Below are positions 1,845-62,348 of a stretch of 64,000 nt of DNA, in pieces. Position numbers and translations under genes: made by a program. This stretch comes from an uncultured Gammaproteobacteria bacterium. Lineage in GTDB: Bacteria; Pseudomonadota; Gammaproteobacteria; JBBQDK01. Numbering within the stretch: the first letter of the stretch is position 1; the number at the start of each line of letters is the position of its first letter. The notes below the pieces were generated by a model. It worked only from the letters and a program-made list of their open reading frames with translations, was not told the DNA's origin and did no database searches. The DNA lies in NCBI GenBank assembly GCA_963778665.1, contig CAVZVG010000003.1, positions 128,813 to 192,812 on the forward strand, given 5' to 3'.

Positions 1845-2075
1845 CCACGGAGGCGCAGAGCTCACAGAGAGGATGAAAACTGTTTTTCAGTGCCTAAGAG
1901 CGCCTAACAAAAAGCCATCACCACGGAGGACACGGAGAAATTTTATCAAAAGCATTCACCAGGGGGAATACGGGGAGCACGGGGGTAACCGCTGATAACC
2001 CCGTGCTCCCCGTGGTAATCGCTTTTCTGCATTGACAAAAAAATCTCCGTGTCCTCCGTGGTGAATGCTTTAAAG
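1845..2075. repeat. composite palindromic repeat element (family A, CACCACGGAGGACACGGAGA inverted repeats with an inner GC hairpin)
   Basis: Outer inverted repeats at 1918-1937 and 2044-2063 plus AAAGCATTCACC/GGTGAATGCTTT. Inner hairpin CGGGGAGCACGGGGG...CCCCGTGCTCCCCG. Related copies at 5558-5625, 20385-20650 and 46888-46988. Confidence 0.6.
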
Positions 2076-2104
2076 AAAAATCATGCGGCCGGCAATTCAT
2101 AAGA

Positions 2105-2515
2105 TCATCCGCTCATGATGCGCGGCCAGCGGTCATGCACCGCATCGGCCATTTCGGGTTCCACCGTCACCACATAGATGCGCCGTTCGTGCGCGTCGCG
2201 CGCGACCAGTCCCTGAATCCATTGTCCCCTGGTCAAGTCGTACCAATGCGAATGACCTTCCAGATCCTTCTCCATGAAACTCTTGACGGGAATCTTCACC
2301 GGGATCGGAAACCACTTGTCCCAACGGCCCGCATAGATCGAATCGAGCCGCGCCCAGCCGCCGAGCGGCAGTTGGCCGGCCTGCTCCCTGCGCCGTCCCC
2401 AGGGCAACAGTTCGACATGCCCGTCCTTGGCCTGCACCGGCAGCGCCGCCTTCGGATTGGGGAAATAGACACGGATGTCCGCGCCCTGATACGTGTAATA
2501 CACACCGCCACACAT
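2105..2515 (-). CDS. SOS-response-associated peptidase (SRAP/YedK)-like protein, short form
   Basis: Starts MCGG (Cys2, as in SRAP MCGR). C-terminal YVVTVEPEMADAVHDRWPRIM matches the SRAP motif ...IHDRMPVIL. Only 136 aa versus ~220 aa typical. Confidence 0.45.
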   Translation of the reverse strand: MCGGVYYTYQGADIRVYFPNPKAALPVQAKDGHVELLPWGRRREQAGQLPLGGWARLDSIYAGRWDKWFPIPVKIPVKSFMEKDLEGHSHWYDLTRGQWIQGLVARDAHERRIYVVTVEPEMADAVHDRWPRIMSG

Positions 2516-2542
2516 GCTGCAACCTGCTCGTGAATGCTTTCG

Positions 2543-2953
2543 TTACCGTCGCAATGCGGCGTCATCCCCAAGATTATCCTCCTGAAGTCGATAAACAATC
2601 TCCCCTCTCCCGCGAGCGGGAGAGGGGTCGGGGGAGAGGGCAAGGCGTATCCTTTCCAGCACAGAATCCATCTGCAGCATCACCTCGTTATTCCAGAACC
2701 GCAACAGGCGATAGCCTTGGGTACGCAGCCACGCATCCCGATACTGGTCATAGGCTATCCGCACGTTATGTTGCCCGCCGTCGAGTTCAATGATCAGTTG
2801 TCGCTCGACACTGACAAAATCGACGATGTAGCGGCCTATGGGTTTTTGCCGCTTGAATTTAACACCCATAAAGCGATGCGCTCGCAGGTGATACCATAAC
2901 CGCTGCTCGGCTATTGTTGGGTTGCTGCGCATGGTTTTGGCGTGGTGCAGCAT
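2543..2953 (-). CDS. DUF559 endonuclease-domain protein (Vsr-like fold)
   Basis: Motifs TIAEQRLWYHLRAHRFMGVKFKRQKPIGRYIVDFVSVERQLIIELDGGQH and LRFWNNEV. The 3' end reads into a GEG-type repeat element, as is common for DUF559 genes. Confidence 0.7.
   Translation of the reverse strand: MLHHAKTMRSNPTIAEQRLWYHLRAHRFMGVKFKRQKPIGRYIVDFVSVERQLIIELDGGQHNVRIAYDQYRDAWLRTQGYRLLRFWNNEVMLQMDSVLERIRLALSPDPSPARGRGEIVYRLQEDNLGDDAALRR
2600..2645. repeat. family E palindromic repeat (CCCCTCTCCCGCGAGCGGGAGAGGGG type)
   Basis: Perfect GC palindrome. Same family at 2990-3160, 5707-5747, 14944-15000 and 20345-20376. Confidence 0.6.
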
Positions 2954-2989
2954 AAGTTCCCTCTCTCTTTCAATTCTTAACCACCATCC

Positions 2990-3160
2990 TGTCCCCTCTC
3001 CCGGAGGGGAGGGTTCGGGAGAGGGCGAGACTCACGTGCGGCAGCAATTTAGTCCCTCTCCCAAGTGTTTTCCTTAATCAAGGAGGGGTAATTCACTCAA
3101 CCCCGCCAAGCACTCTCTATCCCATCCCTCTCCCCGCGCACAGGGAGAGGGTGCTTGCAG
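2990..3160. repeat. cluster of three family E palindromic repeats
   Basis: CCCCTCTCCCGGAGGGGAGGG, CCCTCTCCC...GGAGGGG and CCCTCTCCCCGCGCACAGGGAGAGGG hairpins. Confidence 0.55.
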
Positions 3161-3208
3161 AAGGCACCTTGGAGGGTAGCGCTTTCGTAAACCTGAAAAA
3201 ATCCATTG

Positions 3209-3349
3209 AACCGCCAAAGACGCCAAGAGCGCCAAGAACGCCAAGGAAGGCAAGCAATTTGACCCAGCTACCTTTTCACTGGTTGTGTGAATAGGCGGTT
3301 GGAAACATATATCAGATTCTCTTGGCGCTCTTGGCGTCCTTGGCGGTTT
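3209..3349. repeat. MITE-like element with TTGGCG-triplet inverted termini (family C)
   Basis: AACCGCCAAAGACGCCAAGAGCGCCAAGAACGCCAAGG at 3209-3246 is the inverted partner of TCTTGGCGCTCTTGGCGTCCTTGGCGGTT at 3321-3349. Related copies at 10388-10420, 20467-20545 and 58909-58925. Confidence 0.55.
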
Positions 3350-3352
3350 AAA

Positions 3353-4603
3353 CTAAATCGTTTGCCGGTGGCCGTGCGGTTTCCACGCCGGCGCGATGAC
3401 GTTGGGCATGGACGAGCGGTTCAACAGACGCGCCGGCGCCAGAGTGAATTCGCCGTAACGCTGGTTGATGCGATCCATCACGGCATGTACCGCGTGGGCG
3501 TTGCTCGGCGAGTCGTCGAACAGTTCGCGCTGTTGATCGGCGGGACGCGGATCGAGCGCGGTCACCTGTACCTGATGGATGCCGCGGCCCTGCCAGTAGT
3601 GATCGAGCACCGCCTCGCACAGCGTCATGATGGCGTGACTGTCGGCGCAGGGCAGCGCGGTTTTGAACTTGCCGCCGATCCAGCCGTCGTTGCAGCGCAG
3701 GCCGATGAAGAAGCGGCTTGCCTGCATGCCGTGACGGCGCAGCCGCGCGGCGACTTTTTCGCTCATGTGCAGAAGATAGGTGGTCAGTACTTCGCGCGCC
3801 CGCGTGTCGGGCGGCACCACCTTGCCGTGGCCGATGGATTTGGGCGCCGGGACATTGATGTGCATGGGCTCCGGGTCCTGTCCAAGACACATGTGCCAGA
3901 TGCGCCGGCCGGGATTGCCGAAGCGCTGCGCCAGCACGCTGATCGGCAGTTTCGCCATGTCGCCGCAGGTATACACGCCATGTTTGGCGAGAAAGCCGCC
4001 GATGCCCTCGGCGATGCCGCACAGTTCCGTGACGCGCGCCGTGCTCAGTCGCTCGCGCGCTTCCCACGGCGGAATGATCGTCAGCCCGTTGGGCTTGTCG
4101 AGTTTGGCGGCATATTTTGCCGTGGTCTTGTCGCCGCTTACGCCGATCGAACACAACACGCCGGAGGCGGCGAATACCACTTCCTTGACTTGCTGCGCGA
4201 TCTGCTCCGGCGTACCCAACAGGCGTTGGCAGCGCGTCACGTCGAGAAACGCCTCGTCCACCGAGAACACCTCGATATCCGGCGTGATGCTCTGCAGCGC
4301 ATCCATGATGGCGGTGGAGACCGCCGCATAACGCTGCGGCCGCGCCGGGCATTGGATGAGATCGGGACACAGCCGTCGCGCTTCCTTCAGGCGCATGCCG
4401 GTCTTGATGCCGTAGGCGCGCGCCTCGTACGAACAGGTGATGATGCAGGTGCCTTGCAGGCCGTTGGTCACGGCCACCGGGCGGCCGCGCCATTCGGGAC
4501 GGTCGCGCTGTTCGATGGACGCGAAGAAGGCGTTCATGTCGACGAGGATGATGGCGCGCGGCCAGATGTCAGGATGTGCGGCGGTCATGGCGGAGTCACT
4601 CAT
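3353..4603 (-). CDS. dinB: Y-family DNA polymerase (Pol IV/DinB-like), overlapping lexA
   Basis: N-terminal LVDMNAFFASIE and FSVDEAFLDV retain catalytic Asp/Asp-Glu equivalents of E. coli DinB D8/D103/E104, so this is not a catalytically dead ImuB. 416 aa. 8-nt overlap with the lexA stop. Alternative start at 4588. Confidence 0.75.
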   Translation of the reverse strand: MSDSAMTAAHPDIWPRAIILVDMNAFFASIEQRDRPEWRGRPVAVTNGLQGTCIITCSYEARAYGIKTGMRLKEARRLCPDLIQCPARPQRYAAVSTAIMDALQSITPDIEVFSVDEAFLDVTRCQRLLGTPEQIAQQVKEVVFAASGVLCSIGVSGDKTTAKYAAKLDKPNGLTIIPPWEARERLSTARVTELCGIAEGIGGFLAKHGVYTCGDMAKLPISVLAQRFGNPGRRIWHMCLGQDPEPMHINVPAPKSIGHGKVVPPDTRAREVLTTYLLHMSEKVAARLRRHGMQASRFFIGLRCNDGWIGGKFKTALPCADSHAIMTLCEAVLDHYWQGRGIHQVQVTALDPRPADQQRELFDDSPSNAHAVHAVMDRINQRYGEFTLAPARLLNRSSMPNVIAPAWKPHGHRQTI

Positions 4604-5186: not shown

Positions 5187-5211
5187 GGGCAGGTCTCCAG
5201 GGTGTGAAAAC

Positions 5212-5240
5212 AGCATAGAGAACTTTTGGAGAACTTACAA
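5212..5240 (-). promoter_or_regulatory. candidate lexA promoter (-35 TTGTAA, 17-bp spacer, -10 TATGCT) with a direct-repeat operator GTTC-N7-GTTC in the spacer
   Basis: Minus-strand reading: TTGTAAGTTCtccaaaaGTTCtcTATGCT. The 8-bp direct repeat AAGTTCTC x2 sits ~34 bp upstream of the lexA ATG. No CTGT-N8-ACAG box is present. Confidence 0.35.
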
Positions 5241-5557
5241 GGCAAGATTGCGAGGCGATAAATACTTCCATAAAGACAATCTCTTGCATCTTCTTTGGCG
5301 GGTATGCGGGGTGTGTATCACGCGCCGTGCCGGGCATATTCAGGCGAATTCGCAGAGCCGCGGTTTGCAGTGCGGCGGCCCGGACTTGAGACAACAGGCG
5401 AGGGTTGCCCACCGTGTTCAGAGCCATTGTGTCCATTCGTCGTCTATCGATCCTCGATGTCTCGCTCCCGCACGCGGACGTCGTTCCGTTCACGAAGGCA
5501 TCGCTAGTGGTGTGTACTATTGATCACCAGGATGACATCGATACCCAATGACGCTTG

Positions 5558-5650
5558 GAGCGCCTGACAAACAGCGATCACCACGGAGGACACGGAGAAA
5601 TTTTATTAAAGGAACTCCTTAATTGCAAAGCCGTCATGCCCGCGAAGGCG
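5558..5650. repeat. family A half-element plus family G hairpin (CATGCCCGCGAAGGCGGGCATC)
   Basis: GCGCCTGACAAACAGCGATCACCACGGAGGACACGGAGAAATTTTAT is near-identical to 1890-1945. The hairpin recurs at 10340-10356 and 15072-15099. Together they create spurious ORF 5555..5797. Confidence 0.55.
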
Positions 5651-6029
5651 GGCATCCAAGTTTTTCAGGCGGCCTGGATTATTCGCTACGCGTTACCCTT
5701 CGCGCCGCCCTCTCCCCAATCCCTCTCCCGCAAGCGGGGAGAGCAAAATTCGGCGGGGCGTAGCCGGCGCGGACAAATAAATCAGAGCTTCCTTTAATGA
5801 CGGTTTTCGGATTGGTCAGGGGTTGCTTGGTATTTCCTGTTCACTGATATCACGCGCGTTGCAAGCGCGACGGATCAACGAGGTTTCTTGATAAACCGGC
5901 TCACTGACTTATACTGACCGGCGTACAAGGGTAAAAACAAACGGGATATTGATTGATATCCGACAACGGTCACCGGTCCATGTTTATTGCAAACCCGGGC
6001 TGCAATCAGGGCGCTGACTTGGATCAGGC

Positions 6030-7343
6030 ATGAAACTGAAACTTCACTGGCAAATCATGATCGCGCTGGTACTGGCCGTACTGGCCGGTGTCGCCAGTGG
6101 CAAGGATGCGGCGCTGTTCGGCATCTCGTTTTATGCCATGTTCGCGTTTATCGGCGCATTGTTCCTGAATGCGCTGAAGATGATCATCGTGCCGTTGGTG
6201 GTGTCGTCCATCATCGTCGGCATCGCGGGCATCGGTTCCTCGGGTGCGCTGGGTCGTCTGGGCGGCAAGACCGTACTGTATTACCTCAGCACCAGCCTGC
6301 TGGCGATTCTGGTCGGCCTGCTGATGGTCAATCTGTTTACGCCGGGCATCATCGACGGCCATCCGGCCCGCGAAGTGCTCGGGCAACTGAATGACAAGAC
6401 CGTCGGCGACGTGCTGTCCCGCGTGCAAGGCAAGGGCGCCGGCGACCTCGCGGGGATCTTCCTGCAACTGTTTCCTGCCAACATCATCGCCGCGGCCAGC
6501 AGTAACGGCCAGTTGCTGGGGCTGATCGTCTTCTCGCTGTTGATGGGTTTTTTCATGACCCGTATCGACGAGCCCTATGCGGAGACGCTGTATAAATTCT
6601 GGTCCGGCCTGAACCAGGTCATGATGATGATCACCGACCTGATCATCAAATTCGCGCCGATCGGCGTGTTCGGTCTGGTCGCCAAGGTGGTGGCCGACAC
6701 TGCAACATCCAGATTGGATGAGCTCGCGCAAACCGTCGGCATCTTTTTCCTGACGGTCATGGCGGCGCTGGCCATCCATTTCTTCATCATCCTGCCATTG
6801 ATTCTGCGCTACGTTGCCGGCGTCAATCCCTTGCGCCATTACAAGGCCATGGCGCCGGCATTGCTGATGGCCTTCTCCACCTCGTCATCGGCCTCCACCT
6901 TGCCGGTGACCATGGAGTGCGTGGAAAAGAACGCCGGCGTCTCCAACCGCACCGCCAGCTTCGTGTTGCCCTTGGGCGCCACCGTCAACATGGACGGCAC
7001 CGCGTTGTACGAATGCGTCGCGGCCATGTTCATCGCCCAGTCCTATGGCCTGGCACTGCCGTTTTCCGTACAGTTCACCGTCGTCCTGATCGCGCTGCTG
7101 ACATCGATAGGTGTCGCGGCCATTCCTTCCGCCAGCCTGGTCGCCATCACCGTCATTCTCGCCGCCATCGGTCTGCCCGCCGACGGCATCGCGATGATCA
7201 TGGCGGTCGACCGCATCCTCGACATGTGCAGGACGGCAACCAATGTGTTCAGCGATTCCTGCGGCGCCGTCGTGATCGGCAAACTGCAGGGCGAGCAGGG
7301 TATCCTTGAAGACAGCGACGAAGCCAGGATTGTGGGCGCTTAG
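6030..7343 (+). CDS. dicarboxylate/amino acid:cation symporter (DAACS/SDF family; GltP/DctA-like)
   Basis: 437 aa, ~10 TM segments. Family motifs: glycine-rich GIAGIGSSGALGRLG and a conserved C-terminal reentrant-loop region. Confidence 0.8.
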   Translation: MKLKLHWQIMIALVLAVLAGVASGKDAALFGISFYAMFAFIGALFLNALKMIIVPLVVSSIIVGIAGIGSSGALGRLGGKTVLYYLSTSLLAILVGLLMVNLFTPGIIDGHPAREVLGQLNDKTVGDVLSRVQGKGAGDLAGIFLQLFPANIIAAASSNGQLLGLIVFSLLMGFFMTRIDEPYAETLYKFWSGLNQVMMMITDLIIKFAPIGVFGLVAKVVADTATSRLDELAQTVGIFFLTVMAALAIHFFIILPLILRYVAGVNPLRHYKAMAPALLMAFSTSSSASTLPVTMECVEKNAGVSNRTASFVLPLGATVNMDGTALYECVAAMFIAQSYGLALPFSVQFTVVLIALLTSIGVAAIPSASLVAITVILAAIGLPADGIAMIMAVDRILDMCRTATNVFSDSCGAVVIGKLQGEQGILEDSDEARIVGA

Positions 7344-7384
7344 GCCGCATCGAGGACCGGGTTCACGATCCGGCCCGGCTTCAG

Positions 7385-8836
7385 TTGGTATCAAGCGCAG
7401 GCCGGATACAATGCACCGTTACTTTATGCAATGAGCCGAAGAACCGATCCGTGACAACTTCCGATTTCGACAAGCGGGTACTGATCGAGCAGGTGCGCTC
7501 TATCGAAGCGGAGCATGCGCTGGCCGACGACGCGCAGGGAGTCGCCGCCGATCTGCCCGCGCACAGTGATTTCGACGAGCGTCTCTGGCAACGGGCGCGG
7601 CAGCTTGTCGAGCGCAACGACTTGCAGTCCATTGTGGGGCGCGCCGCCATCCAGTCGCGCCGTGTCAATGGCATCGCCTTGCTCGTGGTTGCCGTGTCCG
7701 GTGCGCTGGCGACGAGTTACGCGCTTACCGCCGACCATGCCATCAATATCTACTGGCTGTTGCTGGTCCTGCTCGGTTTCAATCTGTTGTCCATGCTGCT
7801 GTGGCTGGTGGGCATCAGCCTGCATATGGAAGGCTTGATAAGCGGTGTGCTGGCCAAGCTGACCAGCTGGCTGCCCGCGCAGCTGAAAACCAATGGCAGC
7901 GTCGGCAGCCGCGCGGACCGCGCCTGGCTGGCCTGCAACTTCGGCGGCAAGGTCGGCAAGTGGCAGCTCAGCAAAATCGCGCATCAACTCTGGTTGGTGT
8001 ATATGCTCGCCGGACTGCTGGTGTTGGTGCTGGTACTGATGACGCGTCAGTACGACTTCGTCTGGGGCACGACACTGTTGTCCGATACGGCCTTCGTGAA
8101 ACTGACCAAGGCCTTGAGCACGCCACTGCAGGCATTGGGCCTGACCACGCCGACGCCACAGCAGGTTCAGGAGACGCGCATCGGCGCATTACAAGTATTG
8201 ACCGCCGCGCATCGCTACGCCTGGGCGCAGTTTCTGTTGGGCGCGTTGCTGTGCTTCGGCATCGTGCCGCGACTGCTGCTCTGGTGCTGGTCCGTGCTGA
8301 TGCGCGGCCTGGCCCGACGGCGCTTCGCGCTCGATCACTACCTGCCTTATTACATCGCTCTGCGCCAGCAATTGCTGCCGCTGGCGGGTCATGGCCGGAT
8401 CATCGACGCCGACACCTCGCCGCCTGCTGCCGATGCCGCGCCGCGCAGCGAGCCTGTGCCACACCAACTTCCGACTGAGGCGCAATGGGTGTCGGTCGAG
8501 CTCGGCGATGCTATCGCCTGGCCGCCGCAATCCGTCGACCCCGGCAGTGATCTCGGCCAGGTGGTCGATCGCGACTCGCTGACGCGGATATTGCAACGCC
8601 TGCAGCACGGCGCAGTGCCTGTGCTTGCCGTGGCGGTAGCGGCGGCCCGGTCGCCCGACCGCGGCGTGCAACGCACGATCGCCGACTTGATAGCGAACAG
8701 CGCGCAAGCCTGGCTGGTGCTGCTGCACAGCCGTGAGCATGCTGCGATCTCCACCACGCGATTGGCGGCCTGGTACCGGCTGGCCGAGGCTTGCAAGGTG
8801 CCTGCCGATCACGTCATCAGCATGAGCGTGGCGTAA
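7385..8836 (+). CDS. DUF2868-like polytopic membrane protein (partner of the downstream GTPase)
   Basis: 483 aa. TTG start at 7385, or GTG at 7451. Several TM helices (LLVVAVSGALATSYAL; IYWLLLVLLGFNLLSMLLWLVGISL; LWLVYMLAGLLVLVLVLM). Ala/Pro-rich C-terminus. The stop lies 4 nt before the GTPase gene. Confidence 0.5.
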   Translation: MVSSAGRIQCTVTLCNEPKNRSVTTSDFDKRVLIEQVRSIEAEHALADDAQGVAADLPAHSDFDERLWQRARQLVERNDLQSIVGRAAIQSRRVNGIALLVVAVSGALATSYALTADHAINIYWLLLVLLGFNLLSMLLWLVGISLHMEGLISGVLAKLTSWLPAQLKTNGSVGSRADRAWLACNFGGKVGKWQLSKIAHQLWLVYMLAGLLVLVLVLMTRQYDFVWGTTLLSDTAFVKLTKALSTPLQALGLTTPTPQQVQETRIGALQVLTAAHRYAWAQFLLGALLCFGIVPRLLLWCWSVLMRGLARRRFALDHYLPYYIALRQQLLPLAGHGRIIDADTSPPAADAAPRSEPVPHQLPTEAQWVSVELGDAIAWPPQSVDPGSDLGQVVDRDSLTRILQRLQHGAVPVLAVAVAAARSPDRGVQRTIADLIANSAQAWLVLLHSREHAAISTTRLAAWYRLAEACKVPADHVISMSVA

Positions 8837-8840
8837 AGCG

Positions 8841-10277: not shown

Positions 10278-10320
10278 CGCCCTGCGCGATGAACGACAAC
10301 TCCACTTCGTCAGAGAACCT

Positions 10321-10480
10321 CTGATCAATCGCGAAACCGTCATGCCCGCGAAAGCGCGCCAAGATATCTCCTCTTGAATTTCAAAACAGATTTTCTTGGC
10401 GTCCTTGGCGTACTTGGCGGTTCAAGTAATAAATCAGGGTTTCCTTAAAGTTGCAGGGGCGGGTCTAAGACCCGCACCAG
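10321..10480. repeat. composite repeat: family G hairpin, family C ~105-bp element and family F palindrome (GGGGCGGGTCTAAGACCCGC)
   Basis: 10355-10450 is the inverted counterpart (~90% identical) of 20440-20545. Confidence 0.55.
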
Positions 10481-10491
10481 CGTTCGCCCGC

Positions 10492-11878: not shown

Positions 11879-12274
11879 GATGAACGCGGCATACAGGCCG
11901 GTCAGTGGCTAGACATGGGCCACCAGTGCAAAGGCGATGGCTTCGGGCACCATCGCCAGGGCGACGGTGAGACCGCTCAATACGTTGTTCTGATCTCTTG
12001 CGGGGTGAGTGCGGACAAGTGACTTCTCCAGATTCTGAATACGCAGTGCTGCAAGAGTCCGGCCGCAAGGCGGGGAATGGCAGAGTACGAAAAGTGGACA
12101 GGGTATGACGCGGGCGTTCAGGCAGTGTGTATCGGGGAACGAATAACTCTAAACAGGTGCTGCGTAAGGGGGCGTCACATCGGCCTGTCGGGCCGCCCGA
12201 AATCGATGACATCAGCCCTGAAGTATATCATGTCGGCCTGCCCGGCGGTCTGAAATCGACCTGCGTTTCCCCGC

Positions 12275-14716: not shown

Positions 14717-14898
14717 CGCGGAAGACAGTGCTGCTTGGGATTCCAGCACCCCATCTGGATGGGCGGCATTGCTGGACGTTCCGTCACGGATATCGGATGT
14801 TACTCGCCAGCTGCAGCAAGTCCGAGTCCGCAGGCGCAACACATTTGAACCTGATGCTGATTTGTATGACTAAGGTTATAGCCGGCGCTATGATCACA

Positions 14899-15118
14899 GG
14901 AGCCTCTGATTTATTGAACTCATCAACATGGAGAGTCCGGCTTCGCTCCCCTCGCTGCGCTCTCCCCGCTTGCGGGAGCAGGGGACAGGGCGAGGGAATG
15001 TCTCTGAATAAGATTCCTTCCTCCGGTCAATTGCTTTTCATCAAGTGCTCTTATGGAAACTCTGATTGATTGGCATGCCCGCAAGTACGGGCATGACGGT
15101 TTTCCGATTGATCAGGGC
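14899..15118. repeat. repeat cluster: family H (AGGAGCCTCTGATTTATTGAACTCATCAA), family E palindrome, family G hairpin
   Basis: Family H recurs at 17348-17390. Hairpin GGCATGCCCGCAAGTACGGGCATGACGG at 15072-15099. Confidence 0.5.
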
Positions 15119-15145
15119 TTCCCTGGATAAATAAAGGGATCGACC

Positions 15146-17194: not shown

Positions 17195-17216
17195 GTGCGA
17201 TACAAGAACATTTAAG

Positions 17217-17516
17217 GAGGATGGCACTTACTTAAGCGCTGAATTAGGAATGTAGCCTGGGCTGAGCGGTAGCGAAACCCGGGTTTCACTTCGTTCAACC
17301 CAGGCTACGTGTTGGCTTAAACGGTTAAGTAAGTGCCATTCCATTTAAGGAGCCTCTGATTTATTGAACTCATCAAAATGGAGAGGGGAGTAATCGAATA
17401 AATCAAGAGTTTCCTTAACAGAAAAATGCCTGCCGCAGAGGCGCTGAGGACGCAGAGAACAACCAGACACATGAATAACAACCTCATTACCTCTGCGTCC
17501 TCTGCGCCTCTGCGGC
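17217..17516. repeat. family D (GTAGCCTGGG...CCCAGGCTAC hairpin inside ATGGCACTTACTTAA inverted repeats), family H and family B (CCGCAGAGGCGCTGAGGACGCAGAGA inverted repeats) elements
   Basis: Family D also at 44733-44768 and 58938-59031. Family B also at 50409-50491. These overlap the annotated N-terminal extension of the LOG ORF. Confidence 0.55.
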
Positions 17517-17557
17517 ACAAGTCCATTCAGAATTTTCCTTTCGATGAGCAAACAATC

Positions 17558-20240: not shown

Positions 20241-20344
20241 GCGCTGCACACTGTTTTCCGCCAGTGTGGTGCTGCACGGTTCCTGGCGCTTTACCCACGC
20301 CAGCACATGCCGATGTGCATGTCGTCGAGCAGCAAGGTGATAGT

Positions 20345-20650
20345 TTCTCCCTCTACCTCCGGGTTGGGGAGAGGGTATATATAAAAGCGTCTAACAAAAT
20401 GATTGCTGAAAAGCATTAACCACGGAGGCCACGGAGAATTTTTAAGGAAACCCTGATTTATTACCTGAACCGCCAAGTACGCCAGAAGGACGCCAAAAAA
20501 ATCTGTTTTGAAATTCAAGAGGAAATATCTTGGCGTACTTGGCGGTTGACGGTTTTTTCAGACCTTCCTGAAAAGCATTCACCACGGGGAACACGGGGTT
20601 ATCAGCTGTTACCCCCGTGTCCCCCGTGGTGATGGCTTTTTGTTAGACGC
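20345..20650. repeat. nested composite of repeat families E, A and C (a family C element inserted inside a family A element)
   Basis: AGCGTCTAACAAAA at 20387 and TTTTGTTAGACGCT at 20637 bracket the composite. CACGGAG-type termini at 20420-20437 and 20582-20626. An internal 105-bp family C copy lies at 20440-20545. Confidence 0.55.
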
Positions 20651-20798
20651 TCTAAGTGTCCTGTCCGTCGGCAACCGCTTCCCGCGTTGTCCTGACTCCT
20701 GTATCCATGCGGTCGTCTCTCTGAAAGAGTAAAGAATATTCTTGTCAGGCTGCGCGGATAGCCCCCCTGTGTTTTTTCCAGACCGAGTATGCGCCCCG

Positions 20799-37094: not shown

Positions 37095-37414
37095 CACTAT
37101 CAACAATTATCTTGTATCAACGATTTATATCCCCCTACAAGGGTTACTGTTGCGCGCATCGTATCGCGTATGGCGGACCGTCATGCTCGCAATATGCCGC
37201 AATAGTTATATCTGAATCTGGAGTTCTATCTTCAATTCTGAAGATTAAGTTTCGTTTGCATAAATGCAGAGCTGCCTATGCTCAATTGCTAACAGACCAT
37301 ACAAATGGCATCGGCAGTAACGGTGGTGAGACTGATGACAACCAAGCGAATGGGAAGTGTGGGCCATGTGCGAAAGACACCGCAGGGAATATATGCACAA
37401 TGCCTTGTCTGTGA
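37079..37414 (+). CDS. YidD/DUF37-like protein (membrane protein insertion efficiency factor homologue) with Cys-rich tail, in the Rhs immunity position
   Basis: ILYQRFISPYKGYCCAHRIAYGGPSCSQYA...KFRLHKC matches the YidD pattern YQRLISP...CRF.PTCS.Y...KC. Overlaps the Rhs stop by 16 nt. Low GC, like the Rhs tip. Confidence 0.55.
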   Translation: MYKKIALSTIILYQRFISPYKGYCCAHRIAYGGPSCSQYAAIVISESGVLSSILKIKFRLHKCRAAYAQLLTDHTNGIGSNGGETDDNQANGKCGPCAKDTAGNICTMPCL

Positions 37415-37481
37415 CTGCCAAAGGTGACGACTGCCAAAGGTGACAACCAAAGGTGACCAACCAAAGACTGCCAAAGGTGAC
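37413..37481. repeat. degenerate tandem array of a 16-bp unit GACTGCCAAAGGTGAC (about 4 copies)
   Basis: Two perfect units at 37413-37444, then degenerate units running into the left REP of the RAYT. Confidence 0.6.
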
Positions 37482-37483
37482 AG

Positions 37484-38283
37484 ACGAACCAAAAGGGACA
37501 GATTTATTTGAGTCCACCATGCGGCAAGCTTGAGTGGTCAAAAATCACGGAGAGGAAGACATGCCAAGGAATGGCAGAGTTGTGTTGCAAAACTACCCCC
37601 ATCACATCGTGCAACGTGGCCATAACCGGCAAGTTGTGTTTGCCGGGGAAGATGACTTCAGGTACTACCTCGACACGTTAATAAAGTGGAAAACAGAGTA
37701 TGGCGTCAAGGTCTATGGTTATTGCCTGATGACTAATCATGTTCACTTGGTGCTGGAACCGCCCGACGAGATCGCAGTGCTGGGCCGGTTGATGAAACGA
37801 CTGGCAGGGCGGCAGACCCGCTATGTGAATCGTCTGGAAGGTCGGCGCGGGACTCTTTGGGAGAGTAGATATAAATCGAGCCCAATCCAGACCGATGAGT
37901 ATTTGTTGGCATGCTGTCGTTATGTGGATCTCAATCCGGTACGAGCGCGCATGGTGGTTTCACCACAAGATTATCATTGGTCAAGCTACAGGATGAAGGT
38001 GGGATTGGACGCATCATCTTGGATAGACGAAGATCCTTGTTATTTGTCGCTTGGTCTCGTAGCCGCAACAGCGGTATGAACGTTACCAAGACTTTGTGTA
38101 TTCAGCGATAGCGGAGGGTGAATGGGAGTTGATACGACAGGCCGTTCATCGTTGCCAATTGACAGGAAACAAATACTTTATCGATGAAGTAAACGTATCA
38201 CAGGTCGGCGAATAGAGCACCGCAACCCTGGCAATCAACCGCTGGAGAAGCGCGCCAAATAAATCTGTCCCCTTTGGTTCGTC
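37484..38283 (+). mobile_element. REP-associated tyrosine transposase (RAYT, IS200/IS605-like HuH) flanked by 28-bp inverted REPs; transposase frameshifted
   Basis: Inverted repeats GACGAACCAAAAGGGACAGATTTATTTG (37484-37510) and CAAATAAATCTGTCCCCTTTGGTTCGTC (38256-38283), 1 mismatch. CDS 37561-38215 has HuH motif MTNHVHLVL and Tyr motif RYVDLNPVRARMV..WSSY. A C-terminal frame change near 38070 continues into ...EGEWELIRQAVHRCQLTGNKYFIDE. Confidence 0.65.
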
Positions 38284-38794
38284 TTGCTTGATGCAGCGAA
38301 ATTTGCCGCCGTCAATTATGCCGCATCGAGGAGCAGCATGTGAAAATGGATATTGAGATTCAGCGCACTGCAGAAGCGCTGGATGAGGGTGATCCATCGT
38401 CTGTGCATCGAACGATATTACTCGTTAGCGATCTCTAATATTCTGCTGCATGGCGCCTTAGGATTGACAAGCGCACGGCACCAGTGTTAGCGTCGCCTCC
38501 ACAAGAGATGTGCCGTCAGCGCATGTCCACAAGCAATGACTTGAATAATTCATACGCAGGGCTGCATCAATGTCTCACGGATCGATGACATTCTTCTTCT
38601 GAATCTTGCCGGATCGAGCGTGTACAGCTGTGTCGTCCGGTGATAGCGACTGTTCATAAAAGTTGTAGCGCAAGCGCTGCCCCGCAAGCTGTGCAGCGCG
38701 ATGCGTCAGCGTCGTCCGTAGGATGGACCGGCGCGCAGGGATTTCCGCACCGACGGTTTCAAAAATTACCAACTCGGCCTAAAGGGAGTTCGTC

Positions 38795-44529: not shown

Positions 44530-44960
44530 TCAGGTTCCCTCATCTTGGCTGTGGTGGTGAAGCGGCGCGAATGTCCGCTTCTTGGTCGGGATGCGTCGAG
44601 TCGGCGGGTACTTGCCGTGCGGCATCCATGGCTTGGTGCTGTGTTGTTCAGTGCGGAGTGTCGGCAGGACTATTGTTCGGCGTGTGTCGGGCATGCGTCA
44701 AGCGTTGCCGGGTGGCATGCATCGGTGGGCGGCGCAAACCCGGGTTTCACTGCGTTCAACCCAGGCTACTCGATTCCTTTCCGCCAGCAAAACCGCGTTG
44801 CCGGCGGCAGGTTATTGCCGTGCGGGCTGTGCTGTCGAATCGGTGATGCCATCCGAGACAACGGCTTACGGACTGGCTTCACCCTATGCACAAGTCGGAA
44901 CGAATCTTGCCTGAGACCAGGTAACGACTGCTTATATCAGGTGCGACCCGAGGTGCTGCA

Positions 44961-46860: not shown

Positions 46861-46887
46861 CGATCGGGGAATGAATCGGAACTGCCA

Positions 46888-46988
46888 GAGCGATAGCTGA
46901 CAAAAAACGATTGACCACGGAGAACACGGAGAAGGACTGTCTATGGCATCCTCAATGCTCTCCGTGTCCTCCGTGGTTAATGCTTTCG
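46888..46988. repeat. family A inverted-repeat element
   Basis: GACCACGGAGAACACGGAGA at 46913-46932 and TCTCCGTGTCCTCCGTGGTTAATGCTTT at 46960-46987. Confidence 0.55.
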
Positions 46989-47033
46989 GTTGTTACACGG
47001 TCAGAGAAAAAACCTGATCCGGCCGTTCTTGGA

Positions 47034-50374: not shown

Positions 50375-50408
50375 GCCTGGCTTTGTCATGATATTCTGCC
50401 GCAGAGGC

Positions 50409-50491
50409 GCAGAGTACACAGAGATTGGGGAAGTCGTTGCTGGTATCAGCATAAACCTCTGCGTCCTCTGCGCCTCTGCGGCAATAACTCA
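50409..50491. repeat. family B inverted-repeat element
   Basis: CCGCAGAGGCGCAGAGTACACAGAGA / CCTCTGCGTCCTCTGCGCCTCTGCGG; a copy of 17433-17516. Confidence 0.55.
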
Positions 50492-50518
50492 TTTCAGGCA
50501 ACAACCATATCGGCGCCA

Positions 50519-55232: not shown

Positions 55233-55243
55233 GCGCTGCCGCC

Positions 55244-58854: not shown

Positions 58855-58908
58855 TGGTGAATGGCAGTGCCTGAGGAAACCCTGAGTCATATTAACACAA
58901 TTTTTAAC

Positions 58909-59055
58909 GTACTTGGCGGTTCTGACGGTTTTTTCAGAATGTAGCCTGGGTTGAACGCAGTGAAACCTGGGTTTCGCTAAGCGCTCAACCCAGGCTACAT
59001 ATGAGCAGAAACGCCTTAAGTTAGTGCCATTGGTCTGAGACCCGCCCCTACAAGT
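58909..59055. repeat. composite of family C fragment, family D hairpin and family F half-palindrome
   Basis: GTACTTGGCGGTTCTGACGGTTTTTTCAG; GTAGCCTGGGTTGAACGCAGTGAAACCTGGGTTTCGCTAAGCGCTCAACCCAGGCTAC; GGTCTGAGACCCGCCCCTAC. Confidence 0.55.
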
Positions 59056-59112
59056 TTTTCATGAAGGATAGAGTAACGATGCAAGACAACAACACAGATC
59101 AGGCTGACCTCG

Positions 59113-60378: not shown

Positions 60379-61073
60379 ACGCGCAGCCGGCGGAACAGCC
60401 CGTCATTGCGCTGCGCGATGTCAGCAAGGTGTATGGCACGGGCCAGGCGGCCATGACAGCGTTACGCGACGTCGATATCGACATCCGGCGCGGCGAGTTC
60501 GTCGCGGTGATGGGACCGAGCGGCTCCGGCAAATCCACCTGCATGAATATCCTCGGTTGTCTCGACACCGCGACCAGCGGCAGTTATTTCTTCGAGGGCG
60601 TGGAGGTCGGTGCACTGAGCCGCGATCAGCGCGCGCTGCTGCGGCGCAATTATCTCGGCTTCGTGTTTCAGGGTTTCAACCTGCTGAATCGCACCACGGC
60701 ACTGGAGAATGTCGAACTGCCGCTGATCTATCGCGGCCTGCCCGCCGCAGAGCGGCACACGCGCGCCCGGCAGGCGCTGGACGCGGTCGGGCTGACCGGC
60801 TGGGAGACGCATACGCCGGGCGAGTTGTCCGGCGGCCAGCAGCAGCGCGTGGCGATCGCGCGCGCCATTGTCAGCGATCCGCAGGTACTGTTCGCCGACG
60901 AGCCCACCGGCAATCTCGATTCCGCGCGCAGCCGCGAAGTCATGGAGTTGCTCAAAGAACTGAACGCCGCGCGCGGCATCACCGTGGTGATGGTGACGCA
61001 CGAACCGGACATGGCGGCCTATGCGCACCGCGCCATTCATTTCCTCGACGGCCACATCGACGGGAGCGCCTAG
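60375..61073 (+). CDS. ABC transporter ATP-binding protein (MacB/LolD-type)
   Basis: Walker A GPSGSGKST; signature LSGGQQQRVAIARA; Walker B LFADEPTGNLD. ATGA overlap with the adaptor gene. Confidence 0.85.
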   Translation: MNAQPAEQPVIALRDVSKVYGTGQAAMTALRDVDIDIRRGEFVAVMGPSGSGKSTCMNILGCLDTATSGSYFFEGVEVGALSRDQRALLRRNYLGFVFQGFNLLNRTTALENVELPLIYRGLPAAERHTRARQALDAVGLTGWETHTPGELSGGQQQRVAIARAIVSDPQVLFADEPTGNLDSARSREVMELLKELNAARGITVVMVTHEPDMAAYAHRAIHFLDGHIDGSA

Positions 61074-62285
61074 ATGCTCTGGAACGCGATACTGCTTGCA
61101 CTGCGTGCCATCCGCCGCAATGTCATGCGTTCGTCGCTGACGGTGCTCGGCATCGTCATCGGCGTTGCGGCGGTCATCACCATGGTGACGCTGGGCAACG
61201 GCGCCACCGCGAAAGTGACGGCCGATATTTCCAGTCTGGGCAGCAATCTTCTGCAGGTACGCCCCGGCCAGGGCATGCACGGCCCGGGCGGTACCCGCGC
61301 CGACGCCGTCCCCTTCAAGCTCGAGGACGCCCAGGCCATCGCGCGCGACATCAACAGTGTGGCGGCGGTGGCGCCGCTGGTCAGTCAGGCGACGCAGGCG
61401 ATCTATGGCAATACCAACTGGTCGACCGTGGTGTACGGCAGCGACAACGCCTATCTGCAGGTGCGCGCCTGGTCACTGCTGGACGGCCGTGAATTCAGCG
61501 ACGCCGAAGTGCGTGCCGGTCAGGCGGTGTGCCTGCTCGGCACCACGGTGCGTCGGGAACTGTTCGGCGGACAGAATCCGCTGGGCAGTACGATTCGGCT
61601 GAAGCAGTTGTCCTGCAAGGTGATCGGCCTGCTGGCCTCCAAGGGCTTGTCGACATTCGGCAGCGATCAGGATGATTTCGTGCTGATGCCGCTGCGCGCG
61701 GTGCAGCGCCGCATCGCCGGCAACAACGATGTCAGTTCGATACAGGTCTCGGCCCGCGACAGCGCGAGCACGGAAAAAACCCAGGCCGATATCGAGCGCC
61801 TGATGCGCGAGCGGCGCCACATCGCGCCGGGCGGCGACGACGATTTCAATGTCATGAACATGCAGGAACTGGTCAGCACCCTGACCGGCACCACCAAGAT
61901 TCTGACCGCGCTGCTGGGCGCGGTGGCGGCGGTGAGTCTGCTGGTCGGCGGCATCGGCATCATGAACATCATGCTGGTGTCGGTCACCGAGCGCACCCGC
62001 GAGATCGGCATCCGCCTGGCCATCGGGGCACTGGAGCGCGAGGTGCTGACGCAGTTCCTGGTCGAGGCGGTGGTGCTGTCCTCGCTGGGCGGACTGCTGG
62101 GTATCGCCCTGGGCCTGACCGCCGCGGGGGTGGGGGCGCTGGTACTGAGCGTACCCTTCGTACTCAACCCCGGCATTGTCGCCCTGGCGTTCCTGTTTTC
62201 GGCGGCGGTGGGTGTGGTATTCGGCTATTTCCCGGCGCGTCAGGCCGCGCGTCTGGATCCCATCGAGGCCTTGCGCCACGAATAG
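61074..62285 (+). CDS. ABC transporter permease (FtsX-like/MacB-type) with periplasmic domain
   Basis: 403 aa. N-terminal TM, a ~220-aa periplasmic domain, then three C-terminal FtsX TM helices. Begins 1 nt after the ATPase stop. Confidence 0.85.
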   Translation: MLWNAILLALRAIRRNVMRSSLTVLGIVIGVAAVITMVTLGNGATAKVTADISSLGSNLLQVRPGQGMHGPGGTRADAVPFKLEDAQAIARDINSVAAVAPLVSQATQAIYGNTNWSTVVYGSDNAYLQVRAWSLLDGREFSDAEVRAGQAVCLLGTTVRRELFGGQNPLGSTIRLKQLSCKVIGLLASKGLSTFGSDQDDFVLMPLRAVQRRIAGNNDVSSIQVSARDSASTEKTQADIERLMRERRHIAPGGDDDFNVMNMQELVSTLTGTTKILTALLGAVAAVSLLVGGIGIMNIMLVSVTERTREIGIRLAIGALEREVLTQFLVEAVVLSSLGGLLGIALGLTAAGVGALVLSVPFVLNPGIVALAFLFSAAVGVVFGYFPARQAARLDPIEALRHE

Positions 62286-62319
62286 AGAAGCGCTTGACTT
62301 GCCGAGAGATCAGAGAGAC

Positions 62320-62348
62320 GTAGGGGCGGGTCTCAGACCCGCCCCTAC
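62320..62348. repeat. perfect 29-bp palindrome GTAGGGGCGGGTCTCAGACCCGCCCCTAC (family F)
   Basis: Related half/variant copies at 10452-10480 and 59033-59052. Confidence 0.6.

Follow-up and report, generated by a model that had tools for sequence, protein, structure and literature searches.

The BIMEs of enterobacteria are intergenic mosaics that join palindromic units to further short conserved motifs, the order of which recurs. IS4-family MITEs, such as MIC231 of Bacillus cereus, have terminal repeats ending ...CTTAAG, 10-12 bp duplications and variable cargo. The Correia elements of Neisseria are abundant small inverted-repeat elements that lie at TA-containing targets, change nearby transcripts and give rise to annotation errors, and they occur in one genus only. 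Descriptions of REPINs present them as specific to a lineage and transmitted vertically (Bertels and Rainey, 2011, PMC3116915; Bertels et al., 2017, PMC5581495).

The 64,000-nucleotide stretch analysed here (the window) was said in a preliminary description to have its intergenic DNA saturated by eight unrelated families (A to H) of short palindromic or MITE-like repeats. All the listed copies are present, at or within a few bases of where they had been placed and outside genes, and the families were recovered by a repeat search of the window for direct and inverted repeats. Core-motif copy numbers of 3-11 compare with simulated means of at most 0.5 in 200 dinucleotide-matched simulations of the window (observed / simulated mean: A, 6 / 0.08; A', 4 / 0.07; B, 9 / 0.12; C, 9 / 0.06; D, 5 / 0.01; D frame, 3 / 0.01; E motif GGGAGAGGG, 11 / 0.34; F, 4 / 0.01; H, 5 / 0.01; J, 4 / 0.01). 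Counts exceed all 200 simulations except for G, whose 14-mer is weaker (5 / 1.44) and whose three copies are alignable over ~50 columns. A separate shuffle test of motif A gave 11 observed against 0.87 expected. Saturation overstates the extent of the repeats, which fill only 2,373 bp, i.e. 3.7% of the window and 21.6% of its 10,881 intergenic bp. Every copy falls in a gap of the gene map, with repeats present in 15 of the 35 gaps of at least 60 nt and no repeat match in 14 window gaps. The J flank motif, a transposase gene and extra H copies at 5776, 10428 and 20453 had been missed. The elements are listed below, with no strand assigned.

1842..1872, solo heptamer arm mixing CACGGAG, CGCAGAG and CACAGAG (direct reading, repeat search)
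1894..2075, J flank and A hairpin, arms 1911-1944 and 2038-2071 (repeat search, alignment to 20613-20656)
2990..3152, E modules upstream of a DUF559 gene (2990-3035, 3050-3066) and E hairpin 3122-3152 (motif count)
3198..3357, C element, hairpin of CGCCAAG x4 / CTTGGCG x3 whose left end is H-like but diverged (inverted-repeat search)
5555..5802, mosaic of J and A left arm (5555-5604), H-end fragment (5605-5625), G hairpin (5626-5668), and E modules with H end (5700-5802)
10283..10483, G-type end (10283-10339), C composite with H end (10340-10452), imperfect F palindrome (10453-10483)
14893..15128, H/E MITE (14893-15030) and G mini-element with H-like ends (15058-15128)
17209..17352 including duplications, D MITE (element 17220-17341), ends GATGGCACTTACTTAAG / CTTAAGTAAGTGCCATTC, core GTAG palindrome
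17345..17418, H mini-MITE 17349-17414 with TTAA on both flanks
17426..17522, B hairpin, CGCAGAG / CTCTGCG (fold -35.1 kcal/mol, z -9.3)
20340..20656, E module (20340-20378) and J-bounded composite (20384-20656)
44733..44770, solo half of D core (97% identical to 17275-17308 and 58941-58974)
46885..46992, A hairpin with J-like left flank, between convergent MotB and M15 peptidase genes (fold z -6.9)
50388..50492, B hairpin downstream of an RNase T-like gene (inverted repeat; fold z -7.0)
58870..59050, remnant of a C composite (58870-58937), D core (58938-59014), D-frame end directly next to one half of an F palindrome (59015-59050)
62318..62351, F palindrome GTAGGGGCGGGTCTCAGACCCGCCCCTAC (fold z -7.0)

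The eight families are not unrelated; they reduce to a small set of hairpin modules plus three end frames, which undergo recombination and nesting. A, A', B and C are one architecture, mixing even within one arm, in which the heptamer CRCNRRG is reiterated in both hairpin arms at a period of 8-9 nt. The arm at 1842-1872 mixes A-type and B-type units, so that these units are interchangeable within an arm. D core and F are palindromes headed by GTAG, while E and G are GC-rich hairpins. Against shuffles, single-strand folds reach z -6.9 to -9.3 for A/A'/B/C, -7.7 for D and -7.0 for F; those of E, G and H are weaker (-2.8 to -3.7). Within a hairpin the heptamer units change together, and this concerted evolution generates apparent families. 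Positions 1894-1937 match the reverse complement of 20613-20656 at 41 of 44 positions, two of the three differences being an identical A-to-G change in each heptamer, and the opposite arm of the A' hairpin has CCCCGTG in place of the CTCCGTG of A.

The hairpin modules are joined to the frames H, D and J, the last with the end AGAGCGYCTRACAAAAAG. Heptamer hairpins are carried in all three, C, E and G are found inside H-type ends, and G hairpins themselves bear H-like ends. The H frame has an IS5-like end, GGAAGNYCTGATTTATT, and 9 of 13 credible ends are preceded by YTAR, with all four variants of this usual flanking tetranucleotide seen. CTAA on both sides of one H copy is the sole informative direct duplication. 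H copies flanked TTAA/TTAA occur in the window and in L320, one of the loci (cited by L numbers) compared with it, where three H/E MITE copies are near-identical. IS5 of E. coli has the end GGAAGGTGCGAATAAG, starting GGAAGGT, with a 4-bp TTAG duplication in the copy examined. H ends resemble those of IS5-family MITEs in starting GGAAGGT or close variants, in the usual YTAR flank and in the one CTAA duplication; they differ in that the match to IS5 spans the first 7 nt only, no parent IS was found, the inner end resembles a repeat flanking a Y1 transposase gene, and the cargo is a variable hairpin module.

The D frame, with ends ATGGCACTTACTTAAG / GAATGGCACTTACTTAAG, shows three independent 11-bp duplications of differing sequence, namely CATTTAAGGAG at 17209-17219 and 17342-17352 around the D MITE (fold z -7.7), GTCTCAGACCC in L324 and GGTTTTGATGC in L320. 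The end GAATGGCACTTACTTAAG may resemble those of IS231. The frame is like MIC231 in its ...CTTAAG ends, its duplication length and its short elements with variable cargo, and unlike it in belonging to a different phylum with no parent IS identified.

Insertion of one element into another is repeatedly seen. A complete A' hairpin (1957-2025) lies in the loop of the A hairpin 1911-2071, and the D MITE is inserted into the end of the H mini-MITE 17349-17414. The J-bounded composite 20384-20656 begins with the left arm of A and closes with an A' hairpin (20571-20640); a C composite with H ends (about 20442-20570) has entered its loop at TTAA. A D-frame element also splits an F palindrome. As in BIMEs, palindromic units and short motifs form a mosaic in intergenic DNA; unlike BIMEs, the mosaics are partly bounded by terminal inverted repeats and target duplications, are nested by insertion and have no sequence similarity to them.

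Further evidence comes from sister species, whose genes are 83-89% identical to those of the window. The C element 3198-3357 (fold -44.7 kcal/mol, z -8.6) is flanked by duplicated TAA(A); the site is empty in L340 (TTCTTAAATCG) and reads TTCG-TAA-...-TAA-ATCG when filled. L340 also lacks the H mini-MITE, as well as the DUF559 gene with its flanking E modules, and retains only a remnant, GCTGGAACGCAGAGCAACC, of the B hairpin 17426-17522. The MazG-EF-G gap measures 141-143 nt in L340/L341 vs 429 nt in the window, and the EF-G-LOG gap 78 nt in L340 vs 362 nt. Between OEP and HlyD, the gap is 37 nt and empty in L326/L329, holds C, D and F in the window, and has other elements in L320, L321 and L322 (a B hairpin in one species, two F palindromes in another). 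In the FtsX-HNH gap F is confined to the window and L324 carries nested elements totalling 430 nt, and the F palindrome 62318-62351 is missing from the ~70-nt orthologous gap in six sister loci. The MotB-M15 gap carries an A hairpin in the window vs an H-ended C hairpin in L349/L350, and at the B hairpin site 50388-50492 L349 has an H/E-type element instead. These empty or differently filled gaps indicate that turnover is fast. The E hairpin 3122-3152, conserved in L340, and the B-hairpin remnant there indicate that some copies are old. Repeat-free gaps, e.g. the cspA leader, are 93-96% conserved between sisters, whereas repeat-bearing gaps are unalignable.

These data make it probable that the repeats represent small, non-autonomous mobile elements forming a modular population, and that they accumulate, insert into one another and decay in intergenic gaps where no regulatory sequence is conserved. 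The palindromic, MITE-like reading is thus borne out by two frames with terminal inverted repeats and target-site duplications, and by sister sites that are filled, empty or differently filled. The population would have two layers, hairpin modules (A, A', B, C; D core, F; E, G) being carried by H, D and J end frames. DDE transposases from other parts of the genome would mobilise the H and D frames in trans; for H this is less certain, since its ends also resemble the repeat flanking the Y1 transposase gene. F-type palindromes may be REP/REPIN-like.

Some REPs act as terminators, mRNA-stabilising structures or insulators, and the hairpins could likewise be mainly host-selected functional elements (bidirectional terminators, mRNA-stabilising structures or insulators) instead of selfish DNA. 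The very stable folds (z -7 to -9) favour this, as do A tracts upstream and T tracts downstream (35 and 29 of 117 vs 15 and 17 in reverse controls, ~2x), the position of several window copies between convergent genes (10278-10491, 20241-20798, 46861-47033), a slight depletion in divergent gaps (19% vs 28% of background bases) and the E hairpin kept in a sister. However, a T run accompanies only one copy in four or so, gap types are represented nearly as in the background, and the same gap may hold different families or nothing among sisters. Nesting and target duplications mark insertion, not functional selection. Host function is possible but unlikely as the main account; it is compatible with mobility and could be a secondary use.

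The preliminary description also proposed testing each family for association with a RAYT or an IS. A RAYT-type gene does occur in the window, as the central part of the following unit.

37413..37510, no strand, tandem GACTGCCAAAGGTGAC repeats and left 29-nt inverted repeat of the Y1-transposase unit (TRF, repeat search)
37561..38215, forward strand, REP-associated-type Y1 (IS200-like) transposase, frameshifted near 38079 (PF01797, E 2.4e-13)
38256..38284, no strand, right 29-nt inverted repeat of the unit (97% complementary to the left)

The transposase scores 74.7 bits against NF047646 (E 6.9e-21), below the cut-off of 80, and has 172 aa vs 233 aa for full-length homologues, with the continuation of its frame demonstrable. 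Homologues elsewhere have the same reiterated left end, and the non-palindromic 29-nt repeat accompanies the Y1 gene in other Gammaproteobacteria. The outcome of the association test is mixed: the gene is present but carries a frameshift, and what flanks it is an inverted repeat of its own, not any of the families. This broken gene is the sole transposase gene in the window, which counts against a mobile-element population. No DDE transposase was found among 40 ORFs scanned in the window, nor an autonomous IS with matching ends, an IS630-family gene in L349 having different ends.

All families might instead be REP/REPIN populations replicated by this transposase. They share with REP/REPIN-RAYT systems (PMC3116915, PMC5581495) short multi-copy extragenic palindromes, a GTAG head on F and the D core, F inverted doublets in sister loci (L324, L326) and a RAYT-type gene; H ends share GATTTATTTG with the repeat around that gene, and the report of Group 1 RAYTs across 21 bacterial classes (PMC5581495) also favours this. 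On the other hand, the gene is truncated and bounded by its own repeat, 4-bp and 11-bp duplications are unexpected for HUH/Y1 enzymes, and the heptamer hairpins have no GTAG. No homologue of this RAYT was found in 329 loci (hairpin-bearing, background and sister) or, at E <=1e-10, in Gemmatirosa megaplasmids in which hairpins are present. In L349 the corresponding position is occupied by another RAYT, with 45% identity. Replication of all families by this enzyme is therefore quite improbable.

Repeats have also been taken for coding sequence. As the preliminary description held, the ORF 5555-5797 is spurious, its translation reading through repeats along the entire length. The first 44 codons (17426-17557) of the LOG ORF are B hairpin; the true start, ATG 17558, is conserved in L340. 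The DUF559 gene was also correctly said to read through at its C-terminus, its last 30 residues being encoded by the E module 2597-2652.

2543..2953, reverse strand, DUF559 gene (Pfam PF04480, E 1.6e-40, residues 3-106 of 136)

A period of 9 looks codon-like and ORFs traverse some copies, as would be expected if the pattern were chance, low complexity, coding sequence or assembly artefact. However, periods 8, 9 and 10 coexist within single heptamer arms, the ORFs are contradicted by conserved starts and Pfam domain limits, and the same elements are present in a cultured organism whose genome is finished, as well as in long contigs of many assemblies. The simulations, the starts conserved in L340 and this cross-assembly occurrence refute such a reading, which has next to no probability.

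The repeats had been presented as a property of one genome, but the heptamer hairpin is common to many phyla. CACGGAG hairpins with the same reiterated heptamer occur in ~90 assemblies of about a dozen phyla, including the cultured Gemmatirosa; spacers and loops differ and the nesting is the same. The heptamer is invariant, the spacers being free, C-poor and only ~42% complementary. Three units per arm are usual (range 2-4), and of 149 elements detected, 146 have the purine-rich arm on the 5' side, the ratio being 5 to 0 in a scan of all IMG/VR contigs. Many alternative words occur (CACAGAG, CACGAAG, CGCCAAG, CACGGGG), and none of 5,426 E. coli genomes contains the heptamer-hairpin consensus.

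The fixed heptamer with free spacers, the arm polarity, the three-unit norm and the identically nested CACGGAG and CCGCAGAGG words shared by a gammaproteobacterium and Gemmatirosa could point to a sequence-specific recognition array, either a protein-binding DNA or RNA platform or an RNA device in which Shine-Dalgarno (SD)-like purine words (GGAGG, AGAGG, AAGGA) are masked by anti-SD-like CCUCC, the cross-phylum spread then reflecting function. This is doubtful, less likely still than host selection, given that gene neighbourhood is inconsistent, the many alternative words make one common binding protein unlikely, sister species show turnover of copies and the SD likeness may be mere purine richness. 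As mobile elements, the heptamer hairpins might spread as self-contained palindromes via some enzyme. No target duplication was found in comparable copies in the window or in other genomes, and their mobility is accordingly inferred from polymorphism, nesting and multi-copy spread rather than from junctions.

Cyanobacterial STRR heptamers and the heptamer repeats of PMC4692102 likewise reiterate 7-base words in intergenic DNA. STRRs, however, are contiguous tandem arrays (period 7) with no inverted partner, whereas heptamer hairpins have a period of 8-10, free spacers and arms of 2-4 units that invariably form an inverted pair, the purine-rich one leading. Unlike REPINs, they keep the same heptamer word and clamp across phyla, lack GTAG and reiterate a word, and they have no sequence or architectural similarity to Correia elements, which are confined to one genus. 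What the window's repeats share with Correia elements is being abundant, small and built on inverted repeats at TA-containing targets, and misleading annotation. No Rfam family matched them and no description was found. The repeats are thus ordinary in kind, except for the heptamer hairpin, which crosses phyla and is apparently undescribed.

The window has a GC content of about 61% and, by Pfam, an ordinary chromosomal gene content that includes LexA, a Y-family polymerase, a dicarboxylate symporter, an EF-G paralogue, LOG, a photolyase, a PAS-GGDEF-EAL protein, RND and MacB-type efflux systems, MotAB, an RHS toxin locus and CspA; no tRNA genes were found in it. Two of its proteins have their nearest named homologues in MAGs of uncultured Gammaproteobacteria, Chromatiales and Thiohalobacteraceae. 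All repeat copies listed in the preliminary description are present in the sequence, and an unbiased repeat search recovers them. Each core motif occurs 3–11 times, against at most 0.5 expected from 200 dinucleotide-matched simulations, with the exception of the family G 14-mer, which is weaker (5 observed, 1.44 simulated); three G copies still align over about 50 columns. In separate shuffles, motif A was observed 11 times against 0.87. All copies lie outside the gene map. When folded as single strands and compared with shuffles, the repeats gave z scores of −6.9 to −9.3 (A, A', B and C), −7.7 (D) and −7.0 (F), with weaker values for E, G and H. The feature is real and of an ordinary kind, a mosaic of MITEs and REP-like elements in intergenic DNA.

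For comparison, 14 syntenic loci of sister species were obtained by an exact CspA protein look-up and from close EF-G and MotB homologues; their genes are mostly 83–89% identical, and about 165 kb of sister sequence was compared. The repeats had been said to saturate the intergenic DNA, which overstates their extent, as the catalogued repeats amount to 2,373 bp, or 21.6% of intergenic bases. They occur in 15 of the 35 gaps of at least 60 nt, filling from one third to more than 90% of most such gaps and less in three long ones, and 14 gaps are entirely repeat-free. Gaps with conserved leaders (cspA and a two-component promoter region) are 93–96% identical to those of sister species and carry no repeats. 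Among Rfam covariance models only cspA reached the gathering score; the repeats had no match at E values up to 5, the sole exception being a 17-bit Ocean-VII match on F, which is at chance level. The cspA thermoregulator (RF01766, 119.6 bits) lies at 62877–63282, with the CspA gene beginning at GTG 63015, and its leader is about 95% identical over ten sister loci, unlike the repeat-bearing gaps.

The repeats had also been described as eight unrelated families. This fails, since A, A', B and C have one architecture, while E, G, H and C are physically linked, and a modular description should replace it. The words are CACGGAG in A, CACGGGG in A', CGCAGAG or CACAGAG in B and CGCCAAG in C; each arm has two to four heptamers fitting CRCNRRG with a period of 8–9 nt, and CC precedes the outermost unit (CCACGGAG, CCGCAGAG, CCGCCAAG). 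The 5' arm of these hairpins in the window is always the purine-rich one. One arm, at 1842–1872, has CACGGAG, CGCAGAG and CACAGAG as adjacent units. The left end of A at 1894 and the right end of A' at 20656 are identical at 41 of 44 positions, two of the three differences being the same A-to-G change in both heptamers, and the opposite arm of A' reads CCCCGTG where its counterpart in A reads CTCCGTG. The same unit change in both arms is a concerted one and suggests that the heptamer "families" derive from one another by within-element homogenisation.

The hairpin modules are found within a small set of end frames. The sister locus L320 contains three 180-bp elements, almost identical to one another, that carry E hairpins between the ends TTAA/GGAAGGTCTGATTTATTCG...CGAATTAATCAGAGCTTCC/TTAA. 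The J flank AGAGCGYCTRACAAAAAG accompanies A, A' and B hairpins and forms inverted pairs at 20384/20656 and in the sister locus L324. Composites with H-type ends in the window are as follows.

Elements of the window with H-type ends
14893–15030, 5700–5802 and 17349–17414: H/E element copies, the last a 66-bp miniature
20442–20570, 10340–10452 and 58870–58937: composite of a C hairpin with H-type ends, the last a remnant; the shared part is 93–98% identical
15058–15128: G hairpin bounded by the H-end variant GGAAACTCTGATTGATTGG

Insertion of the D frame produces 11-bp duplications and that of the H frame 4-bp duplications; both frames vary in hairpin cargo, nest in one another and differ between sister species, and both have terminal inverted repeats. 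The elements are 70–270 nt long, present in several copies and without coding capacity; ORFs across them are spurious. The 122-bp D-frame element at 17220–17341 has the ends GATGGCACTTACTTAAG and CTTAAGTAAGTGCCATTC and is flanked by CATTTAAGGAG, directly duplicated over 11 bp. The 11-bp duplications of two D-frame copies in sister genomes differ from it: one is GTCTCAGACCC, at an insertion that splits an F palindrome, and the other is GGTTTTGATGC. The cargo is not constant: the window copy carries a GTAG palindrome, and those of the sister loci L320 and L324 carry C-like heptamer hairpins. In the sister locus L349 (4150–5400), an IS630-family element is apparently inserted in a D-frame end (GATTGGCACTTAGTTA/CTCATAGG...), so that nesting would reach a third level.

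For the H frame, a YTAR tetranucleotide precedes 9 of 13 credible ends, all four variants being represented, and the 4-bp duplications are CTAA and TTAA. In one copy, CTAA stands as a direct repeat on the two sides, an arrangement that cannot come from a palindromic end. The IS5 of E. coli, at 1,195 bp, reads TTAG/GGAAGGTGCGAATAAG...CACCTTCC/TTAG, the right end also being written CTTGTTCGCACCTTCC, and the H frame shares with it the first seven end bases (GGAAGGT) and the type of 4-bp YTAR duplication. An IS630-type TA duplication for the H frame, prompted by a DDE_3 gene in L349, was also weighed; a 4-bp duplication explains the informative CTAA copy more simply, and the ends of the L349 IS are unrelated. 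No IS5-family DDE transposase was found among 40 window ORFs, nor any parent IS for the H frame in the 64-kb window. These ends and duplications suggest that DDE transposases would mobilise both frames in trans, an IS5-like enzyme in the case of the H frame and possibly IS4/IS231-type elements in that of the D frame. The C element at 3198–3357 is absent from the sister locus L340, where the empty site reads TTCTTAAATCG, and its filled site is flanked by TAA on both sides. Stand-alone heptamer hairpins have no visible target duplication in the copies compared. TTAA beside the hairpin clamp was rejected as a target duplication; the alternative, TTCA...TGAA, is inverted and not direct.

Alignments with the sister loci break precisely where the gaps bear repeats, and the content of several gaps differs from locus to locus.

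Gaps of the window and their counterparts in sister loci
OEP–HlyD: window, 352 nt with a C remnant, D and half an F; L326 and L329, 37 nt and empty; L320, B hairpin; L322, two F palindromes; L321, half a D core
FtsX–HNH: window, F palindrome; six loci, about 70 nt without F; L324, 430 nt with a nested F, a D-frame element and a C-like hairpin
MazG–EF-G: window, 429 nt; sisters, 141–143 nt
EF-G–LOG: window, 362 nt; sister, 78 nt; L340 retains only a 19-nt remnant of a B hairpin
136-aa gene to polymerase: window, DUF559 with flanking E modules; L340, B hairpin instead
MotB–M15: window, A hairpin; L349 and L350, H-ended C hairpin

The DUF559 endonuclease-like gene (2540–3120) is bordered on either side by E modules in direct orientation, and L340 lacks it at the orthologous site; the gene itself may be a small mobile unit, with the E module in common with the H/E MITE. 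About 6 kb at 6030–12212, between LexA and HipA (SDF symporter, DUF2868, DUF3482 GTPase and small ORFs), is likewise missing in L340. The sister comparison bears out the three annotation artefacts that had been attributed to the repeats, a false N-terminus of LOG, a C-terminal read-through of DUF559 and a spurious ORF at 5555–5797, and fixes the true LOG start at ATG 17558. As the elements produce false ORFs, false N-termini and read-through of this sort, masking before gene calling is advisable in this lineage.

The likeness to REP sequences is confined to part of the mosaic. F and the D core are imperfect extragenic palindromes of the short kind, about 20–40 nt; F was matched 4 times in the window and 9 times in sister loci and the D core 5 times, and both have a 5' GTAG/GTGG head (F, GTAGGGGCGGG...; D core, GTAGCCTGGG...) that A, A', B, C, E and G lack. 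Inverted F doublets resembling REPINs occur in two sister loci (L324 8082–8165 and L326 7606–7690); F copies of the window are single or split. The window also has a Y1 gene of the type associated with REPs.

Features at and around the Y1 gene of the window
32302–37094: RHS/YD-repeat toxin locus, of low GC and strongly negative GC skew, with the broken Y1 gene directly behind it
37482–37510 and 38256–38284: 29-nt inverted repeat AGACGAACCAAAAGGGACAGATTTATTTG flanking the Y1 gene, with a tandem related motif on the left and no further occurrence in the window
37561–38079, forward strand: ORF of the Y1 (IS200-like) transposase, split by a frameshift, the remainder running on to 38215
38795–42490: gene for a 1,231-aa protein with bacterial TSP3 repeats
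40874–42241: five 267-nt tandem repeats of that gene, encoding carboxypeptidase-regulatory-like domains
42753–44543: caspase-domain gene, missing, like the 1,231-aa gene, between RAYT and MotA in L349

The top curated match of the Y1 ORF is NF047646, the model of REP-associated tyrosine transposases, with 74.7 bits (E 6.9e-21) against a cut-off of 80, the gene being shortened by the frameshift; full-length homologues have 233 aa. In homologues from Chromatiales MAGs and a Pseudomonas aeruginosa plasmid, the left side carries a reiterated ...AAAGGGGACA and both ends carry AAAGGGGACAGATTTAT..., and this same end design indicates that the 29-nt repeat belongs to the Y1 gene's own unit. The inverted repeat AAAGGGGACAGATTTAT... 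is conserved with the Y1 gene across Gammaproteobacteria (homologue loci L330–L339 and L348). As to an association with a RAYT, raised in the preliminary description, none of the eight families flanks the Y1 gene, unlike in REP/REPIN-RAYT systems, where the RAYT gene has the same REP sequences beside it. The only link of the Y1 repeat to the families is GATTTATT(TG), shared with the H ends; this 8-mer has 8 occurrences where 0.47 would be expected, all of them in H ends or in the Y1 inverted repeat. The Y1 inverted repeat also resembles the inner H end (GATTTATTTG, with TACTC further in). On sequence, the H-frame elements could derive from the Y1 unit or from an IS5-like element. The corresponding position in L349, behind its RHS locus, is occupied by a different RAYT (45% identity) together with an IS630-family gene, which gives the region 3' of the RHS locus the look of an insertion hot spot. 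The F palindromes may behave as REPs or REPINs.

The periodic-heptamer hairpin has a much wider distribution. One genome per species was scanned for two CACGGAG, a loop of 10–40 nt and two CTCCGTG (28 specified bases), and this A-hairpin pattern was found at no fewer than 119 loci in at least about 90 assemblies, counted by WGS accession prefix. By record title, the matches listed include Acidobacteriota, Alpha-, Beta- and Gammaproteobacteria, Myxococcota, Gemmatimonadota, Planctomycetota, Verrucomicrobiota, Spirochaetota, Chloroflexota, Armatimonadota, Bacillota, Bdellovibrionota, Desulfobacterota and Bacteroidota. Among the same matches, the consensus of 234 arms is (A-rich) TT[C/A]A CCACGGAG r CACGGAG rr CACGGAG, usually with three units per arm; the spacers are C-poor and only about 42% complementary, and the loops have a median of 24 nt without a common motif. 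Within a genome, the copies have lineage-specific clamps and loops in common and lie in unrelated flanks, which points to the hairpin itself as the replicated unit there. With a word-independent detector, the purine-rich arm was 5' in 146 of 149 elements, and in all of IMG/VR the normal arrangement was found five times and its mirror never. Hairpin density per 100 kb is 7.8 in the window, 0.74 in the sister loci and 0.12 in unselected bacterial DNA (868 kb, from metagenome relatives of an EF-G-like protein at no more than 68% identity). The single periodic-heptamer hairpin of this background (CACGAAG; L265 12075–12151) lies about 35 nt downstream of an EF-G paralogue, a position matching that of the repeat cluster after the EF-G paralogue of the window. 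Matches also occur in assemblies labelled as a Thermoplasmatota archaeon (L223), a Klebsiella pneumoniae MAG (L183) and an Asaia bogorensis MAG (L173), possibly mis-binned.

In Gemmatirosa kalamazoonensis, a CACGGAG hairpin is nested in a CCGCAGAGG hairpin twice within 40 kb of plasmid 1 (L347 19949–20120 and 25799–25960), with words and nesting identical to those of the window. In the record CP007129 the hairpins lie at about 187,559–187,730 and 193,409–193,570. The same plasmid has hairpins of other words, GCTGCGT/ACGCAGC and CGCGGAT/ATCCGCG, at 14401–14503, 34369–34484 and 35400–35456, some with up to ten units on one arm, so the architecture is more diverse than the CRCNRRG set of the window.

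Several carriers and known classes were considered for the hairpin. Carriage by phages was rejected: the whole of IMG/VR has 5 strict matches, and 50,697 GenBank phage records have none. Carriage by plasmids was rejected too, the consensus being found among them only on two Gemmatirosa megaplasmids. It is absent from 5,426 E. coli genomes. RAYT adjacency of the heptamer hairpins was ruled out, and a search of viral contigs for the RAYT of the window gave no match. Cyanobacterial STRRs are contiguous tandem repeats of period 7, whereas the hairpin has a period of 8–10 nt, free spacers and always inverted pairs. No description of the heptamer hairpin was found in the literature searched. As for termination, a run of at least four T lies downstream of 29 of 117 hairpins against 17 controls; T runs are present at the window copies 20571–20640 and 46900–46992, with none at 50388–50492, and the distribution of hairpins over gap types is near background. 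These figures hint faintly at a possible secondary use by the host as a terminator or RNA-stabilising structure.

The heptamer hairpins might spread as self-contained palindromes through some enzyme, change by unit homogenisation, and either ride in frames or insert into them. As the window shows, intergenic repeat "families" in bacteria can result from the combination of a few hairpin modules with a small number of transposon end frames, which alters how such repeats should be classified and counted. Among the modules, the periodic-heptamer hairpin is the one worth attention, for its identity across phyla, its fixed handedness and its concerted evolution. We put forward tentatively, and with more doubt than confidence, that it is an undescribed pan-bacterial class of small palindromic repeat, with two to four CRCNRRG per arm, a period of 8–10 nt, the purine arm first and a TT[CA]ACC clamp, which would have its own propagation, unit-by-unit concerted evolution and a conserved trans-acting factor (an HUH or other enzyme, or the translation or transcription machinery). 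It would be distinct from REP/REPIN-RAYT because its heptamer word and clamp recur in about a dozen phyla among the matches listed; REP-like repeats are usually regarded as lineage-specific. Since the same hairpins are present on megaplasmids of the cultured G. kalamazoonensis KBS708, the question is open to experiment. The same word and clamp across Acidobacteriota, Planctomycetota, Gemmatimonadota, Spirochaetota, Proteobacteria and others implies either an unrecognised mobilising system of broad host range or a conserved cellular partner.
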